A stretch of DNA of 64,000 nucleotides from contig NC_057754.1 of NCBI RefSeq assembly GCF_004010195.1, positions 8,925,728 to 8,989,727 of the forward strand, in the 5' to 3' direction. The notes under the pieces are model-generated. The model had not been told where the DNA came from and searched no databases. It worked only from the letters and a program-made list of their open reading frames with translations. Positions 3,411 through 61,216 of the stretch are shown here, one piece after another (position 1 is the stretch's first letter; the number at the start of each line of letters is the position of its first letter). A program made the position numbers and the translations under genes. The DNA is from Chiloscyllium plagiosum. Lineage: Eukaryota.

Positions 3411-3630
3411 GGAGAAAGTGAGGACTGCAGATACTGGAGATCAGAGTTAAGAGCATATTGCTGGAAAAGCACAGCAGGTCAGGCAGCATCCGAGGAGCAG
3501 GAGAATCAATGTTTCGGGCATAAGCCCTTCATCAGGAACAAAATAGATTCCTGATGTCCGAAATATTGATTCTCCTGCTCCTTGGATGCTGCCTGACCTG
3601 CTGTGCTTTTCCAGCACCACACTGTCGAGT
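3411..3630. mobile_element. Penelope-like element terminal fragment in fold-back form, with hammerhead motif and 15-bp TSD
   Basis: TSD CTGAAAGAACAGCCA at 3396-3410 and 3631-3645. Inverted arms surround about 3540-3548. Minus-strand CTGATGAAGGGCTTATGCCCGAAACATT at 3508-3535. Confidence 0.85.
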
Positions 3631-9592: not shown

Positions 9593-9688
9593 GGTAAAAA
9601 CAATGACAGCAGATGCTGGAAACCAGATTCTGGATTAGTGGTGCTGGAAGAGCCCAGCAGTTCAGGCAGCATCCGAGGAGCAGTAAAA
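9593..9688 (-). mobile_element. Penelope-like 3' end fragment
   Basis: Reverse complement of the tail also seen at 22995-23084. Confidence 0.8.
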
Positions 9689-10484
9689 TGTGAAGGGGAC
9701 TGGGTTACATTAGAGTTTCTTCTCCCGGACCACGCTCTTGGTCATGGTTCACCCAGCCATTTGTAAATCCAGGATCAGTGTTTGCCAAAGTAGGTGAGTG
9801 CTGGGAGAGTGGGGTATAGTTTGGGATTGCTCTGGCTGGTGGTCTGTTTTCCATGATTCATCTCATGGCCAGGTGCCCCTGGAGTCAGAAGTGTATAGAG
9901 TTCACTGGTATGCTCCTTCCACAGGTGGAGGGAGTCGGAGTGTCTCGTGGATACTGGGAACAAATTCTAGTTCAGCTGGTCATGTTTAATTTTCTTATTT
10001 CAGGATTAGTTGCTGATATTGGCTTATTTTAGTTTGATTGAACCATACGTTTATTGGAACAAGAAGGGAAAGGCAGTTCATGATAATTAGAGTGGTCAGT
10101 TGTGAATTTCTGTCTAGGCCTGATAGTGATACTGACACTGTCAATTCCTTTTACAGGCAGAAACTCCAATCAGACATCAGATCAACATGTGACTGTGCCA
10201 TTCAAATCACTGAATATAATTCGCTTTTGAATATGGAGGGAGATATGCTTGTCTGCTCTGTTTGTAGGTAAATACTAAAAACATCAGTGTGACTGGAAAA
10301 GGCACCAAAACACACACACCTGAAAGCAGATATTCCAGTGCGCTGTGTGAAAAGAATTTTAACCAGTTACTCGGCCTGAAAAAGCAATGTAACCATTCAC
10401 AGCAGGGAGAAACCTTACATGTGTTCTGTGTTCAAGGTTTTAACTGATCATCTGACCTACAGAGTCCCAACAATACTCAGCACC

Positions 10485-16732: not shown

Positions 16733-16879
16733 AGTGAAAAAGTGTGGCACTGGAAAAAAACAGCAGGTCAGACAGCATCTGAGGAGCAGGAGAATCGATG
16801 TTTTGGGCATAAACCCTTCATCAGTAATGCGTGCAGAAGAATCGACGTTTCAGGCATAAACCCTTCACAAGCTTCATAA
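16733..16879 (-). mobile_element. Penelope-like fragment with two tandem degenerate hammerhead segments and a 14-bp TSD
   Basis: TSD ACTAGCTCATCCAG at 16719-16732 and 16880-16893; GAATCGA(T/C)GTTT--GGCATAAACCCTTCA occurs twice. Confidence 0.8.
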
Positions 16880-18752: not shown

Positions 18753-18871
18753 GGCTTTTGCCCGAAACGTCGATTTTCCTGCTCCTCGGATGCTGCCTAA
18801 CCTGCCGTGCTTTTCCAGCACCACTATAATCTAGACTCTGATTTTCAGCATCTACAGTCCTCACTTTTGCC
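18753..18871 (+). mobile_element. Penelope-like 3' end, truncated inside the hammerhead, with 12-bp TSD
   Basis: CTGTT(A/G)GTGGCA at 18741-18752 and 18872-18883; the insert starts GGCTTTTGCCCGAAACGTCG. Confidence 0.8.
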
Positions 18872-21224: not shown

Positions 21225-21782
21225 TGTGCTGGAAATGTGTTGCTGGAAAAGCGCAGCAGGTCAGACAGCATCCAGGGAACAGGAGAATCGACGTTTCGGG
21301 CATAAGCCCTTCTTCAGGAATGGGGAAAGTTTGTCCAGCAGGCTAAGATAAAAGGTAGGGAGGAGGGACTTGGGGGAGGGGCGTCAGAAATGTGATAGGT
21401 GGAAAGAGGTGAAATGTTGTGCTACAGGGTGGTTGGGTTGGTTGGTCCGGGTGTCCCAGAGGTGTTCTCTGAAACGCTCCGCAAGTAGCCGGCCTGTCTC
21501 CCCAATATAGAGGAGGCCACATCGTCCTGTCCCCCTTAGTCCAAGAACTCCCCACCTACGTTCGGGACACCACCCATGCCCTCCACCTGCTCCATGATTT
21601 TCGCTTCCCTGGTCCCCAACGCCTTATTTTCACCATGGACATCCAGTCCCTGTACACCTCCATCCCCCATCACAAAGGACTCAAAGCCCTCCGCTTCTTT
21701 CTTTCCCGCCGTACCGACCAGTACCCTTCCACTGACACCCTCCTTCGACTGACTGAACTGGTCCTCACCCTGAACAACTTCT
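21225..21782. mobile_element. Penelope-like element piece: minus-strand 3' end with intact hammerhead core plus an inverted RT fragment
   Basis: Minus-strand CTGAAGAAGGGCTTATGCCCGAAACGTC at 21290-21317. Plus-strand TMDIQSLYTSIPH...LTELVLTLNNFS is a PLE-type RT motif. Confidence 0.85.
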
Positions 21783-22738
21783 CGGGAGAGAATCGGGCCT
21801 CTCAAAGATCAGCAAGGCAGCCTTTGTGTGGAACCATAGGAGATGGGGGAGATACTAAACAAGTATTTTGCATCAGTGTTTACTGTGGAGAAGGACATGG
21901 GAGATATGGAATGTGGGGAAATAGATGGTGACATCCTGAGAAATGTCCATATTACAGAGGAGGAGGTGCTGAATGTCTTAAAATGCATAAAACTGGATAA
22001 GATAAGATAACTGGATGAGATGTTTGTATCGTCGGTAGTCACAGTGGTGGCTGCAGCGCCACTATTAAAGATGGTAAGGAAAAGCCAGCGAACGAGAAAC
22101 TGGTGAGCTTGATATCGGTAGTGGGCAAGTTGTTGGAGGGAATCCTGAGGGACAGGATGCACATGTATTTGAAAAGACAAGGACTGCTTCGTGCATGGGA
22201 AATCATGTCTCAAGAACTTGATTGAGGTTTTTGAAGAAGTAACTAAGAGGATTGAGGGCAAAATCGTGGACATGATCTATAGGGACTTCAGCAAGGTGTT
22301 CAACAAGTTTCCCTTGGGAGACTGGTTAGCAAGGTTAGATCTCACGGAATACAGGGAGAACTAGCTATTTGGATACAGAACTGGTCCGAAGGTAGAAGAC
22401 ACAGGGTGGTGGTGGAGGATTTTTTTCAGACTGGAGGCCTGTGACCAGTGGAATGCCACAAGGATGCTAGGTCCACTACTTTTTGTCACTTATATAAATG
22501 ATTTGGATGTGAACATAGGAGGTATAGTTAGTAAGTTTGCAGGTGACGCCAAAATTGGAGGTGTATTGGACAGCAAAGATGGTTACCTCAGGTTACAATG
22601 GAATCTTGATCAGATGGGCCAGTGGGCTGAGGAGTGGCAGATGGAGTTTAATTTAGATAAATGTGAGGCGTGCATTTTGGAAAAGCAAATCTTAGCAGGA
22701 CTTATACACTTAATGGTAAGGTCCAAGGGAGTTTTTGC

Positions 22739-23084
22739 AAAATCGACGTTTCGGACAAAAGCCCTTCATCAGGAATAAAGGCAGAGAGCCTGAAGCGTGG
22801 AGAGATAAGCTAGAGGAGGACGTTTCGGGCAAAAGCCCTTCTCCTCTAGCTTATCTCTCCACGCTTCAGGCTCTCTGCCTTTATTCCTGATGAAGGGCTT
22901 TTGCCCGAAACGTCCTCCTCTAGCTTATCTCTCCACGCTTCAGGCTCTCTGCCTTTATTCCTGATGAAGGGCTTTTGCCCGAAACGTTGAATTTGCCTGT
23001 CCTCGGATGCTGCCTGAATTGCTGTGCTCTTCCAGCACCACTGATCCAGAATCTGGTTTCCAGCATCTGCAGTCATTGTTTTTA
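22739..23084. mobile_element. Penelope-like insertion built of 74-nt hammerhead-containing units in inverted and tandem arrangement
   Basis: Units at 22745-22818 (-), 22819-22841 (-, partial), 22841-22914 (+) and 22915-22988 (+), then the normal tail. TSD CCAAGGGAGTTTT(T)GC at 22723-22738 and 23085-23099. Confidence 0.9.
22887..22914 (+). ncRNA. minimal type I hammerhead ribozyme motif
   Basis: CUGAUGA core, A, stem II GGGC-UUUU-GCCC, GAAA, palindromic ACGU stem III, GUC triplet. Further copies at 22961-22988 (+; ATTC/GAAT can form stem I) and 22745-22772 (-). Confidence 0.8.
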
Positions 23085-24239
23085 CCAAGGGAGTTTTGCT
23101 GAACAGAAACCTTGGAGTGCAGGTTCATAGCTCCTTGAAAGTAGAGTCGCAAGTAGATAGGATAGTGAAGAAAGTGTTTGGTATGCTTTCCTTTATTGGT
23201 CAGCGTATTGAGTATAGGGCTTGGGAGGTCATGTTGCGGCTGTACAGGACATTGGTTAAGCCACTGTTGGAATATTGCGTGCAATTCTGGTCTCCTTCCT
23301 ATTGGAAAAATGTTGTGAAACCTGAAAGGGTTCAGAAAAGATTTACAAGGATGTTGCCAGGGTTGGAGGATTTGAGCTATAGGGAGAGACTGAATTGGCT
23401 GGGGCTGTTTTCCCTGGAGTGTCAGAGGCTGAGGGGTGACCTTTTTGAGGTTTATAAAATCATGAGGGGCAGGGATAGGATAAACAGACAAAGTATTTTC
23501 CCTGGGGTGGGGGAGTCCAGAACTAGAGGCCCTAGGTTTAGGGTGAGAGGGAAAAATATGGAAGTGACCGAAGGGGCAAAGTTTTCAGAGGGTGGTGCGT
23601 GTATGGAATGAGCTACCAGAGGAAGTGGTGGAGGCTGGTACAATTGCAGCATTTAAAAAGGAATTTGGATGGGCATATGAATAGGAAGGATTTAGAGGGA
23701 TATGAGCCAAGTGCTAGCAAATGGGACTAGATTAGGTTAGGATAGCTGGTCGGCATGGACTAGTTGGACCGAAGGATTTGTTTCCGTACTGTACATCTCT
23801 ATAACTTTATGCTCAGCAATGTATTGGAATCATCAAGTCTGAAGGTAGTAGCAACATGGTGAGGGTTTTAGCAGCAGACGAGGTGGGGTAAAGGCAGGTA
23901 ATGTTACAGAAATCTAAATGTGTGGTATTAGTGATGGTGTGGGTATGAGACCAAGGTTGTGAACAGTGTGTTCAGTTTCAGTTCAGGAGAGGGATGGACT
24001 CTGGGCAACAGAATTTATTGTAGCAACAGAAAACGATGGTCTTCTAAATTTGTGATTCAAGGATGTTTCCACGCATTCAGTACTGAATAGTCACTGAAAC
24101 TTTAGCAATAGTGGAAGAATGAAGAGAGATGGTAGTGTGGTAGAACAGGGTCTTGTCAGTGTACGTGCAGTAACTGCATGTAGTTGAGAATAGGAGGGCC
24201 GAGGATAGATCAGATTAGGGTATGCAAAAGTAAACAAGA

Positions 24240-24659: not shown

Positions 24660-26250
24660 CAGAAATTTACAGTGTGGAAAACGAGAATACTGGTTTGTAT
24701 TGAGGATATTTCTACTCATTCACACCTGGAATACAGTTATTGTCCCCTATCTAAGAAATGATACAGTGCTGTAAAGGTAGTCCAGAGAATGTTCATTTGT
24801 TTTATGCATAGGTAAGAGAGGTTGAGTACATTTGAGCCTGTACTAATTGGAGTTTAGAAGAATGAGAGGTGACATTATTGAAACACACAAGGTTCTTAGG
24901 GGACTTGAGAGGACAAATATGGATAGGTGATGGTTACTCCTTGTGGAAGAGTTCAACACCAGTGAGCAAAATCTCAGTAAAGGGTCAGCATTTAAGACAG
25001 ATGTGAGGAAAATTGACTTCTCTCCAGGGAGTAGCAAATGTTTTAAAGTTCTTTACCACAGAGGTCTGTTGAGGCTGGATCATGGAGTACATTTAAAATA
25101 GACATTTTTAATAAGTAAAGAATTTGAGGGTTATGGGGAGAAAGTAGGAAAATGTAGTTGCAGGTTATCAAATCGGCCAATAAACAGCTGAACAGACTCT
25201 GTGGGCTGAATGGCCTATTTCTGCTCCTGTGTCTTATGGTCCAGAAGGAAAGCCGTTGGCCCTTCAGGCTGTGCTTTGTGAACAACTATTTCCCTTAATG
25301 CCATTCTCCTGCCTTCTGATTAAACCTGGCTTCACCATACCATCAGGTAGCACATTGCTGACCTCAACCATTCTCAACGTGAAACACCTTTTCCTCCTAT
25401 CACCTTTCTCTCTTTTTACCAATTTATGACACTAAGCTGGGTGAGCAGGTGAACTGTGACGTGGACAGTTATATGAGTGGGCAGATGGACAGTAATGAGG
25501 TGTAATATGGATGAATGAGGTTATCCACTTTGATAGCAAAACCGGGCAAGCAGATTATTATCTGAATGATAGACTGGGTAAGAGGGAGGTGCAACGAAAC
25601 CTGGGTGTCCTTGCGTACCAATTGCTTAAAGTAAGCAGGCAAGTGGTGAAGAAGGCAAATGGTATGTTGGCCTTTAGTGAGAGGTTTTGAGTACAGGAAC
25701 AGGGATGTCTTACTGGAACTTTACAGGGTGTTGATGAGATTAAAGCTGGAGTAGTATGTGCAGTTTTGGTTGTCTTATCTGAGGAAGGATGTTCTGGCTA
25801 GAGGCTGTGGCACAGACTTACCACCTATCCACTCCACCCTCCCCTCTGACCTATCACCATCACCTTCCCCCACCAGCCTCACCACCACACTCCTACCTAT
25901 CTCTCAGCTCCCTTCCTCCACCCCCACATTCCTGATGAAGGACTTATGCCCGAAACATAGATTCCCCACCTCCTTGGATGCTGTCTGAATGGCTATACTT
26001 TTCCAGCGCCACACTTTTCAACTCTGATCTTCAGTCCTCACTTTCTCCCACAGAGAGTTACTAGTCTGATTCCTGTGATTGTGGAACTGATGTACAAAGA
26101 GAGACTGGATCGGTTAGGACTACATTCACCTTGATCCCTAGATTAAAGAGATGAAAGGGTATGGGATAAAAGGAGGAACAGGGTAGTTGGATGATCAACT
26201 AGATCATATTGAATGCAAACACACTTGAAAGGCCAGACACTCCTATTTTT
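24660..26250 (+). mobile_element. two decayed CR1-clade 3' fragments (about 24660-25240 and 25430-26250) with a Penelope 3' end at about 25820-26049
   Basis: HLEYS/LEYYVQFW-type remnants. Hammerhead motif CTGATGAAGGACTTATGCCCGAAACATA at 25932-25959. Confidence 0.65.
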
Positions 26251-29261: not shown

Positions 29262-29386
29262 TGAGAAAGTGAGGTCTGCAGATGCTGGAGATCAGAGCTG
29301 AAAAATGTGTTGCTGGAAAAGCGTAGCAGGTCAGGCAGCATCAAAGGAGCAGGAGAATCGACGTTTTGGGCATAAGCTCTCGTCAG
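29262..29386 (-). mobile_element. Penelope-like 3' end with mutated hammerhead
   Basis: Standard tail; the core reads CTGACGAGAGCTTATGCCCAAAACGTC. Confidence 0.8.
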
Positions 29387-31308: not shown

Positions 31309-32600
31309 CTATAGTGGTGTCATCAACAAATTTGAAAATGTGTTGCTGGAAAAGCGCAGCAGGTCAGGCAGCATCCAGGGAACAGGAGAATCGATGTTTC
31401 GGGCATAAGCCCTCATCAACAAATTTGTCAGTGGAGTTTGAGCTGAATTTGACCAAACAGTCATAAGTGTATAAATATGTACAGTAAGGTGCTGAGTATG
31501 CAGCCTTGAGGGGCACTGGTGTTGAGGATTATCGTGGAGGAGGTCTTGTTCCTTATCCTAACTGATTGTGGTCTGCGGGTCAGCAAGTCAAGGATCCAGC
31601 TACAGCATGGGGAACAGAGTTCCAGGTCTCGGAGTTTGGAGATGAGTTTGTTTGGAATTATGGTGTTTAAAGGTGGAGCTAAAGTCAATAAATAGGAATC
31701 TGATGTAGGTGTCCTTGTTATCCAGATGTTCCAGAGATGAGTGTAGGGTCAGGGTGATGGCGTCTGCCATGGATCTATTGTGGTGGTAGACGATTTGTAA
31801 TGGACCAAGGCAATCTGGGAGACTGCAATTGATGCCATTACTAACCTCTCGAAGCACTTCATAAAGATGGCTGTCAGAGCCACCGGGCAGTACTCATTAA
31901 GGCACATTGCCTGATTTCTCTTTGGCATGGGGACGATCATGGTCTTCTTGAATCGGGTGGAACCTCATATCGGAGTAGGGAGAGATTAAAGATGTCTGTG
32001 AATACTCCCACCAGTTGGTCCGCGCAGGATCTGAGTGCATGACTGGGGACATCGAGGCCAATTGCTTCCCAAGGGTTCACTCTCAAAAAGGCCAATCTGA
32101 AATCTGCGGTGGTGACTGTGGGTACAAGTGCACTCGAGGCTGTCGGGGCAGGTGACATCATTTCAATCACCACCTGTTCAAAATGAGCATTGAATGCATT
32201 GAACTCATTGGGGAGGGAAGCACTATTGTCAGCGATTCCACTCAACCCCCCTTTGTAGCCCATTATATCATTAAATCTTGCCACAGTCTGCGACTCCAGT
32301 TTAATCTGGTATTGTTTCTTGGCATTCCTGGTGGCTTTGCAAAGATCGTACCTAGATTTTCTGTAAAGGTCAGGGTCACCCGACTTGAATGCCTGAGCCC
32401 TAGACTTCAGTGGTTTCCAGTTGGGAACACCGGGATGAATTTGTTTGCAACACGCAGACCTTACTGATGAAGTATCTGACGGTAGTGGCGTACTCATTTA
32501 GATTGGCGGCTGAGTTCTTGATTGTAGACCAGTCCATGGACTCCAAGCAGTCACTGAGGAGCTCATCTGTTACCTCAGACCAGTACTGTGTGAACGTCCC
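31309..32600 (-). mobile_element. Rex1/Babar LINE RT fragment
   Basis: [53 protein letters not shown] and SAPQGCILS. Contains a Penelope fragment at 31335-31412 with TSD TCATCAACAAATTTG (31320-31334, 31413-31427). Confidence 0.85.
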
Positions 32601-57863: not shown

Positions 57864-58485
57864 TCAGTTGAAGCCTTGATGACACACAGAATGTGTATGG
57901 ATTCACACTGCTGTAACAGTGTGATGTTTTTTAAGCCTGCGTAACTGGTTAAAGCTCTTTCCACAGTCGCTTCATTGGAACACTTTCACTTAAGAGTGCA
58001 TGAAGGTGTTTTTCTGTGTGCCTCACTGATTTTACAGCCACTCTGATGTAGATAATTTTTTGAAGAGTGAATATACAAAACAATTCTCCTTCCAAACTTA
58101 AAGACCGATGATAATCAAGTCCCAATGAATAATGCGACTCTATCAGATCTCCAGGTGATGTTTGGTGTGAGATTTGTTTGCAAATCCTTCCCTTTTAATG
58201 TTCTGTAAAATTAATTAATAAAAGTCATTGCTGTCAGTACAGGACAGAAATTTACAGCATACAGTTCTTTATCCTTTTAAATATTCTTTCCTCTCTCATT
58301 CTCCTAGCTATAAGTCTCCATACCACATACTTTCCCTGAATTCCTCCTCCCTGCACCTAGTCTCAAGTTTATTGAATATTGCAACCCAAGTTGATTGACA
58401 GATCCATGATTACCATCTCCATGCAATACATGGAGATATGAAGCTCATAGTACTAGACTAAAACTGTGTGCCACACACAATACTG

Positions 58486-58608
58486 ATGAAGGGCTTATGC
58501 CCAAAACATCGATTCTCTTGCTTCTCGGATGCTGCCTAACCTGCTGTGCTTTTCCAGCACCACACTTTTCGACTCTGATCTCCAACATGTGCAGTCCTCA
58601 CTTTCTCC
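58486..58608 (+). mobile_element. Penelope-like 3' end starting at the hammerhead core, 10-bp TSD
   Basis: CACAATACTG at 58476-58485 and 58609-58618; CTGATGAAGGGCTTATGCCCAAAAC. Confidence 0.8.
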
Positions 58609-60614: not shown

Positions 60615-61216
60615 TCCGACAGAGATTTACCTGCACTTCCACATGTCATCTACTGTGTCCGTTGCTCTCGATGTGCTCTCCTCTACATTGGGGATACAGG
60701 ATGCCAACTTGCGGAATGTTTCAGAGAACATCTCTGGGACACACACTAAACAATCCCACCGCCTTGTGGCCAAACACTTTTAACTCCCCCTCCCACTCCG
60801 CCTGGGCCTCCTCCACTGCCAAACTCTAGCCACCTGATGTCTGGAAGAAGAACACCTCATCTTCCTCCTTGGGACCCGACAATCACACAGGATCAATGTA
60901 GATTTCACCAGTTTCCTCATTTCCCTTCCCCTGACCTTATCCCAGATCCAACCATCCAACTTGGCACCGCCCGGTTGACCTGTCCTACCTGTCCATCTTC
61001 CTTTCCACCTATCCGCTCCACCCTCCATTCTGACCTATCACCTTCACCCCTATTTTCTTCTACCTATCACATTACCAGCTACCTTGCCCCCCAGCCCAGC
61101 CCCTCCTCCCATTTATCACTCATTCCTGATGAAGAGCTTACACTCAAAACATTGATTCTCCTGCTCCTCGGATGCTTCCTGACTGGCTGTGCTTTTCCAG
61201 CACCGCACTCTTCGAC
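60615..61216 (+). mobile_element. Penelope-like 3' part (GIY-YIG remnant, 3' repeat, mutated hammerhead)
   Basis: QRFTCTS..C-RC-LLYIG..EH..VAKHFNSPSH..EEEHLIFLLGT remnant; CTGATGAAGAGCTTACACTCAAAAC at about 61126. Confidence 0.8.

Follow-up and report, generated by a model that had tools for sequence, protein, structure and literature searches.

Marks specific to the predicted cut bond of the minimal hammerhead in genomic copies of a Penelope-like element

Genomic copies of a Penelope-like element of Chiloscyllium plagiosum bear two countable marks, A-rich inserts and 5' starts at +1, at the bond that the element's putative minimal type I hammerhead is predicted to cut. On the basis of these marks we consider it likely, with a probability of roughly 0.85, that the Penelope hammerhead cleaves its RNA in vivo as a minority route. 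The family-wide marks, not the ordinary locus with one suggestive join that is described below, are the result worth following. The window is the whole 64-kb stretch of DNA that was analyzed, and coordinates refer to it. Element positions are counted from C17 of the hammerhead, which is numbered 0 and immediately precedes the predicted cut at the 0/+1 bond.

The locus at 22739-23084 is a single 5'-truncated, 5'-inverted insertion of a Penelope-like pLTR with one 74-nt duplication that appears in both arms. In plus-strand order it consists of a target-site duplication (TSD), an inverted arm (-22..0 then -73..+8 on the minus strand), -73..0, -73..+97, and the second TSD. The duplicated unit (-73..0, plus strand, 22841..22914) is followed by the main arm of the pLTR (-73..+97, plus strand, 22915..23085), and 22841-22913 and 22915-22987 are identical across 73 nt at 74-nt spacing, which confirms the two tandem units of a preliminary description of this stretch. 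The full and partial inverted units that it placed at 22745-22841 are likewise found, and are ordered on the minus strand as a 23-nt partial unit (22841-22819, -22..0) and then a full unit (22818-22745). The latter runs 8 nt past the cut site, to 22737, such that the inverted -73..+8 copy occupies 22737..22818 and has its last 2 nt in common with the target; the first base of the duplicated unit is common to the inverted arm. Against the natural family copy L024 the insert shows 4 differences over 350 compared positions: 0 of 74 in the duplicated unit, 0 of 23 in the partial inverted unit, 1 of 82 in the full inverted unit (a C>T in helix II), and 3 in the main arm, two of them at 0, where T replaces C, and at +3. 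This second plus-strand unit runs on to +97 and includes the optional 35-nt PLE tail (plus strand, 23051..23086), the last 2 nt of which are common to the TSD. The TSD, previously put at about 15 bp, is indeed a duplication, with 13 nt matching exactly (plus strand, 22723..22735 and 23085..23097), or 15-16 nt when one extra T is allowed (22723-22738 matches 23085-23099), and it overlaps the element by 2 nt at either end. The host sequence (plus strand, 22365..22722, resuming past 23097) is a decayed remnant of a LINE-type reverse transcriptase, presumably CR1-like, with an RVT_1 match of E 0.0025, under the curated cut-off.

The locus holds only two joins of GAAACGTC to CTCCTC, at 22914/22915 on the plus strand and at 22819/22818 on the minus strand, and both lie within an inverted repeat of 105 nt with 97% complementarity. 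These are one and the same join, and a count of four independent joins was rejected for this reason. Since both arms carry the duplication, it predates or coincides with integration. The arms share the join yet differ at 3 of 105 positions, which, as judged from the assembled letters, argues against a simple assembly loop. Among the read and contig pieces listed for four sequencing runs, which contain at most 0.65 of the words of the stretch, none spans the join, a sampling too thin to weigh for or against the assembly. An exact-match search of the 3.56-Gb genome returned two matches to the join, both at this locus, so that the plus-strand join at 22914..22915 is unique in the genome. In L024 a C directly precedes CTCCTC, and because of this 1-nt C microhomology the join lies at either -1 or 0. 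The earlier proposal that the units end exactly at the GUC triplet instead of entering the usual tail therefore stands in part: the join is compatible with the GUC and occurs in both arms, but its position is ambiguous by one base, and the remaining two units run on into the usual downstream sequence. Of the four 5' ends at the locus, three are at -73.

The family to which the insert belongs is large. A 36-nt family piece has 8,129 exact copies in the genome, and 11,223 copies run with normal spacing straight across the cut site; none of the first 30 of the 8,129 copies leaves the family at the cut. In these 30 copies the 3' ends lie near +63 or near +98, corresponding to the optional PLE tail as that concept appears in passages of PMC11167929 and PMC8557442. 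Upstream, of three frames taken from longer copies with contiguous sequence, two score above the Pfam cut-off for GIY-YIG. Shared upstream sequence was followed to about -900, with one RVT_1 match that may or may not be contiguous with the element, and a Pfam search of the long frames of L073, L048, and L185 returned no families. Copy L073 also shows many T>C-type changes along the pLTR and the upstream frame, unlike other copies. An inverted 5'-truncated copy and a TSD are present at the locus, and inverted copies are common in its relatives. The upstream GIY-YIG, the tail ends, and the usual inverted 5' copy therefore identify the insert as a pLTR fragment of an EN+ Penelope-like element. 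By the features tested, the locus is a member of the EN+ Penelope-like insertions, an ordinary insertion with one extra template switch. Within the window, whose repeats appear shark-like, an older copy of the same family lies on the minus strand at 21229-21623; its core reads CUGAAGA, and a decayed GIY-YIG remnant lies upstream (E 0.049, under the cut-off). About ten more family pieces, 78-93% alike and some arranged as head-to-head pairs, are present as well, including those at 3423-3620, 9595-9689, 16744-16867, 18753-18859, 25928-26012, 29276-29380, 31340-31418, 58483-58596, and 61122-61204.

The main arm contains a complete motif (plus strand, 22957..22992) with a 4-bp helix I, the core, helix II, a palindromic helix III, and an NUH triplet, and the predicted cut falls after 22988. 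This motif fits the minimal type I hammerhead architecture described in PMC4209133, and self-cleavage is a prediction from it. Together with the upstream GIY-YIG, it bears out the earlier assignment to a Penelope-like element with a minimal type I hammerhead. Helix I pairs at 4/4 positions in the main arm and at 3/4 in the full minus-strand unit. In the duplicated unit (22841..22914) it pairs at 0/6; here the core has no helix I partner, and hence the complete motif is not found. An Rfam scan of the 64-kb window gave no matches at the gathering score. The helix III duplex of a dimer would comprise 4 bp, with a computed energy of -3.1 kcal/mol, and the predicted cofold minimum differs from the active dimer.

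The loss of helix I bears on the suggestion that the locus is a nascent retrozyme, in which a 74-nt circle would be copied by rolling-circle reverse transcription. The two head-to-tail units, the large TSD, and the type I hammerhead do resemble non-LTR retrozymes as described in passages of PMC7229834. However, synthesis of the main arm requires a linear, tailed RNA to start on, the 5' end of the unit does not correspond to a cut product, and a 74-nt circle could not cut again because the join removes helix I. Two consecutive complete hammerheads, a criterion given in passages of 10.64898/2026.07.22.740005, are not found either, as the first unit has none of the six helix I pairs. With a join that is unique in the genome (two of two matches at this locus), breaks helix I, and has not been amplified as a family, the retrozyme-like, rolling-circle unit of the preliminary description was rejected, and we regard it as very improbable.

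We also compared the join with other concatemers of the family. When pairs of cores with a spacing of about 44-104 nt were sought, 17 matches at 15 loci came up, or 14 loci after one inversion was dropped, and this count is a lower bound because the search needs exact anchors. Joins compatible with 0 occur at two of the 14 loci, namely the one at 22739-23084 and L290 (at 0 or +1); the join of L282 is at -1, and the remainder span -14 to about +62. Without the pre-selected locus, 1 of 13 is compatible with the cut, which is no enrichment (P 0.36-0.49, assuming about 60 possible positions). A tally of plain 3' ends gave 52 matches, of which 51 distinct ones were re-found, with three labels corrected by eye and the total unchanged. 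The search behind it had a capture bias and missed the locus at 22739-23084. Among the 21 true 3' ends between -16 and +2, three are at 0, which is not significant (P 0.10). With one join of 1-nt ambiguity and these two tallies, the claim that the locus by itself is in vivo evidence of cleavage is not supported; the low share of cut-compatible joins at the other concatemer loci makes the locus, taken alone, weak evidence.

These numbers leave some room for a chance template switch or slippage at the locus, in which the reverse transcriptase (RT) left at -73 and re-entered at random at -1 or 0 via the one-base microhomology; the ribozyme may then cut elsewhere in the family and yet not have shaped this locus. 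At 12 of the 14 concatemer loci the join falls elsewhere than at the cut, and several of these joins use 2-4 nt of microhomology; chance alone, at 2 of about 60 positions, would place a join compatible with 0 at approximately 0.5 of 14 loci. The observed number of such loci is two, however, the A-rich inserts described below indicate that ends at 0 serve as acceptors, and the identical -73 ends are easier to obtain with one short fragment. We therefore consider a chance switch rather unlikely, and somewhat favor a join at 22739-23084 that derives from the cut via an RT jump.

Two of the other concatemers are themselves unusual. L292 (G000:C39596) contains about five 44-45-nt units (-36..+8) and L283 (G000:C15:5840569) three units (-37..+7), both with variable join bases and some joins with an extra G. 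Since each unit of L292 retains the whole minimal hammerhead, it comes closer to a retrozyme than does the locus at 22739-23084. L292 and L283 show that repeated jumping is a habit of the family, also without the cut. The joins of L281, L283, L284, L289, L292, and L279, together with the inverted arm (22737), are concentrated between +7 and +14, which suggests that re-priming recurs in a zone just past the cut.

The first of the two family-wide marks is seen in a whole-genome census of 2-15 nt inserts over a 17-gap window from -16 to +1. Of 14 inserts found, eight are A-rich, 3-9 nt long, and non-duplicative, and all eight lie at the 0/+1 bond, where both neighboring bases are retained. Pure A makes up four of them, G is present in two others, and T in the remaining two. 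Seven different insert sequences are represented, in copies that belong to several subfamily backgrounds and are flanked differently; the two loci that carry the same insert could share one source. Of the other six, two are tandem duplications and two are complex changes; a T-run slip and a deletion in a copy that bears a duplication complete the set. Under a uniform distribution over the 17 gaps, the A-rich pile-up has P 3e-7, or 5e-6 after multiplication by 17. In an equal-sized upstream control window none of 13 inserts is an A-run, and among 40 one-base inserts there is no A at the cut. In an older subfamily an A-run at the cut accounts for 1 of 27 inserts, with a copy number that two counts place between 1,100 and 33,600. 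In listings of the literature we found no published account of A-rich inserts at the cut bond, and the supplements of PMC11167929 and of the bioRxiv preprint could bear on this point. A separate subfamily (L084-L112) carries a 17-nt tandem duplication of +1..+17, with a start that is ambiguous to +4 through 3 nt of microhomology; it is present in 25 of 25 copies viewed, one of them on a second background, and about 206 of 220 matches have the longer gap. This duplication fits a jump from the cut 5' end onto uncut RNA and also plain slippage, and has been amplified since.

The second mark is a peak of 5' starts at +1, which was counted in two sets from one subfamily that overlap and are not independent. 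The first set scored 10 positions (100 of 156 matches listed, 99 re-found), and the wider set 18 positions (100 of 267 matches listed, 98 re-found, 13 same-strand rearrangements excluded). Among the matches listed, 17 of the 48 starts of the first set that adjoin non-family DNA are at +1, and the other nine positions have 0-8 each; in the wider set 22 of 85 starts are at +1, made up of 12 of 32 at flanks and 10 of 53 at inversions (P 1e-9 for a uniform distribution). The next-highest positions among the listed matches of the wider set are -11 (11 starts, mostly a helix II fold-back) and +4 (8 starts, a palindrome); both peaks are due to local sequence and are counted against the cut reading. 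As a rough estimate, a few percent of subfamily copies start at +1. A coarse BLAST test of 75 less-selected copies gave no starts at +1 and starts that are widely spread, with no visible 5'-end hotspot at -73. TSDs were mostly not found for the +1 starts among the matches examined. Two causes in CpG chemistry were considered and rejected: decay at the site affects 8 of 51 copies, too few for the observed 12 T to 3 C, and a general CpG barrier is not seen at the control positions -7 (3 starts) and -2 (0 starts; wider set, matches listed). That starts at +1 are many and ends at 0 few argues against later insertions having split existing copies at the cut site. In L298 and L309 the +1 start is preceded by family sequence that ends at about +62/+63, the short 3' end. 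Among the less-selected copies, 5' starts are concentrated between -31 and -37, immediately upstream of the core (L130, L323, L026, L030, L285, L288, and L283), and RNA reads lose the reference at -31 as well. The proposed genome-wide tally of junctions against the GUC thus has a divided outcome, as inserts and 5' starts are enriched there and concatemer joins and plain 3' ends are not.

Both marks could instead arise at the DNA level, with no RNA cleavage, if the element's endonuclease nicked its own pLTR at the ATT just past the cut site; repair would then add A-runs templated by nearby T-runs, and microhomology with AT-rich targets would pile starts at +1. Passages of PMC11167929 describe a preference for 5'-ATT-3' in the Poseidon element of Anolis carolinensis (PAc), which is also able to make nicks in its own pLTR. 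By eye, some of our inserts look similar to the reverse complement of T-rich sequence close by, and some +1 starts, such as that of L194, share GATTT with the target. A T precedes 12 of 17 flank-type +1 starts in the first set and 4 of 12 in the wider set (matches listed), and together with the shared GATTT this means that microhomology explains part of the +1 peak. Against such an origin, all eight A-rich inserts lie at one bond, one base upstream of ATT, with no loss of flanking bases, the CpG-barrier controls show no pile-up, and the older subfamily has the same local sequence and only 1 of 27 A-run inserts, a figure with an uncertain denominator. On balance, a DNA-level origin of the family signals appears improbable.

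A further alternative for the join is RNA ligation, in which an RtcB-type ligase would link the 2',3'-cyclic-phosphate end of the 5' product to the 5'-OH of an RNA that begins at -73/-74, the chimera then being copied into both arms. A single chimeric template would account for the same join in both arms, and passages of PMC6789731 describe RtcB joining such ends in U6/L1 chimeras. Two RNAs with the same -73 end would be needed, however, and -73 is not a visible hotspot; an Rfam search for known RNA (U6 or other) before the +1 starts gave no matches at 20 loci. To our knowledge, a plain oligo(A) 3'-OH end is no substrate for RtcB, which also counts against ligation. We consider this route slightly less probable still than a DNA-level origin of the family signals.

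Direct evidence was sought in RNA reads. The 1,650 poly(A) single-cell reads on L024, from a library type unsuited to cleavage, show no pile-up of molecule ends, and none of the best 24 of 473 loose-end rows from that library has an A-run loose end at the cut.

For cleavage as a minority route, the following sequence of events may be envisaged. The hammerhead would cut a small share of germ-line transcripts after the GUC, and 3' cut products copied to their end would yield copies starting at +1. The 5' cut product would be oligo-adenylated, or the RT would add untemplated bases, before the pieces are bridged, leaving A-rich inserts. Mixed tailing is carried out by host TENT-type enzymes. At the locus, the RT would prime in the tail, run to -73, resume on a -73..0 fragment at its cut 3' end, perhaps that of the same molecule, and once more run to -73; if one such short fragment was copied repeatedly, the -73 position of three of the four 5' ends would follow. 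The second target strand would then prime at +8 through 2 nt of microhomology and copy the joined sequence to -22. In its specific form, with a few percent of transcripts cut, a mixed A/G tail made by the host, and a telomerase-related PLE RT that bridges the cut and recopies the fragment, this scheme is tentative; the copies would then amount to a dated record of ribozyme activity and RNA-end repair. More generally, the A-rich inserts direct attention to two follow-ups, namely whether the cut end is tailed or the RT adds bases without a template, and the marks suggest that cleavage is a side route rather than the normal way of producing template. With two countable marks at the predicted bond, in vivo cleavage becomes testable in genomes with many young copies.

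Compared with known systems, the locus shares with EN+ PLEs (Penelope/Poseidon; passages of PMC8557442 and PMC3846280) the 5' truncation, partial tandem, and adjacent inverted 5'-truncated copy, as well as an optional tail (30-40 bp in those elements), the TSD, and a GIY-YIG upstream in longer copies. It differs from those accounts in that the upstream tandem piece halts at the predicted ribozyme cut rather than at the normal 3' end, and that an identical join is present in both arms at 22739-23084. Animal non-LTR retrozymes, as portrayed in parts of PMC7229834 and 10.64898/2026.07.22.740005, are similarly PLE-derived, with head-to-tail units, a type I hammerhead, and a large TSD; in these multi-copy elements every join restores a complete ribozyme, whereas here helix I is destroyed and the join is unique.

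Whether minimal hammerheads of PLEs cleave in vivo is described as an open matter in passages of PMC4209133, PMC8557442, and PMC11167929. The last of these reports that the PAc hammerhead cleaves in vitro with the help of protein; in the portions considered here, Frangieh et al. (2024) saw no RNA-seq reads whose ends lay at the PAc cut, and insertion in vitro proceeded without need of cleavage. Our family resembles PAc, as described there, in having, downstream of the hammerhead, two 3' ends with a spacing of about 35 nt, in priming on both target strands, and in using mostly uncut RNA. For PAc no reads are described in those portions with either terminus at the cut, whereas here a minority of genomic copies start or carry inserts there. 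In R2, passages of PMC3774820 relate that 5' junctions track the cut of the HDV-like ribozyme, and there too genomic 5' ends and extra bases reflect that cut; in R2, however, the cut makes the normal 5' end, while here it marks few copies, near the 3' end of the inserted piece. Finally, the motif agrees with minimal PLE hammerheads in its short helix I, the extra base before helix II, the palindromic loop-less helix III, and the dispersed single and opposite-strand copies. The published account of those hammerheads states that evidence of cleavage in vivo was lacking, whereas here genomic copies bear position-specific marks at the cut bond.
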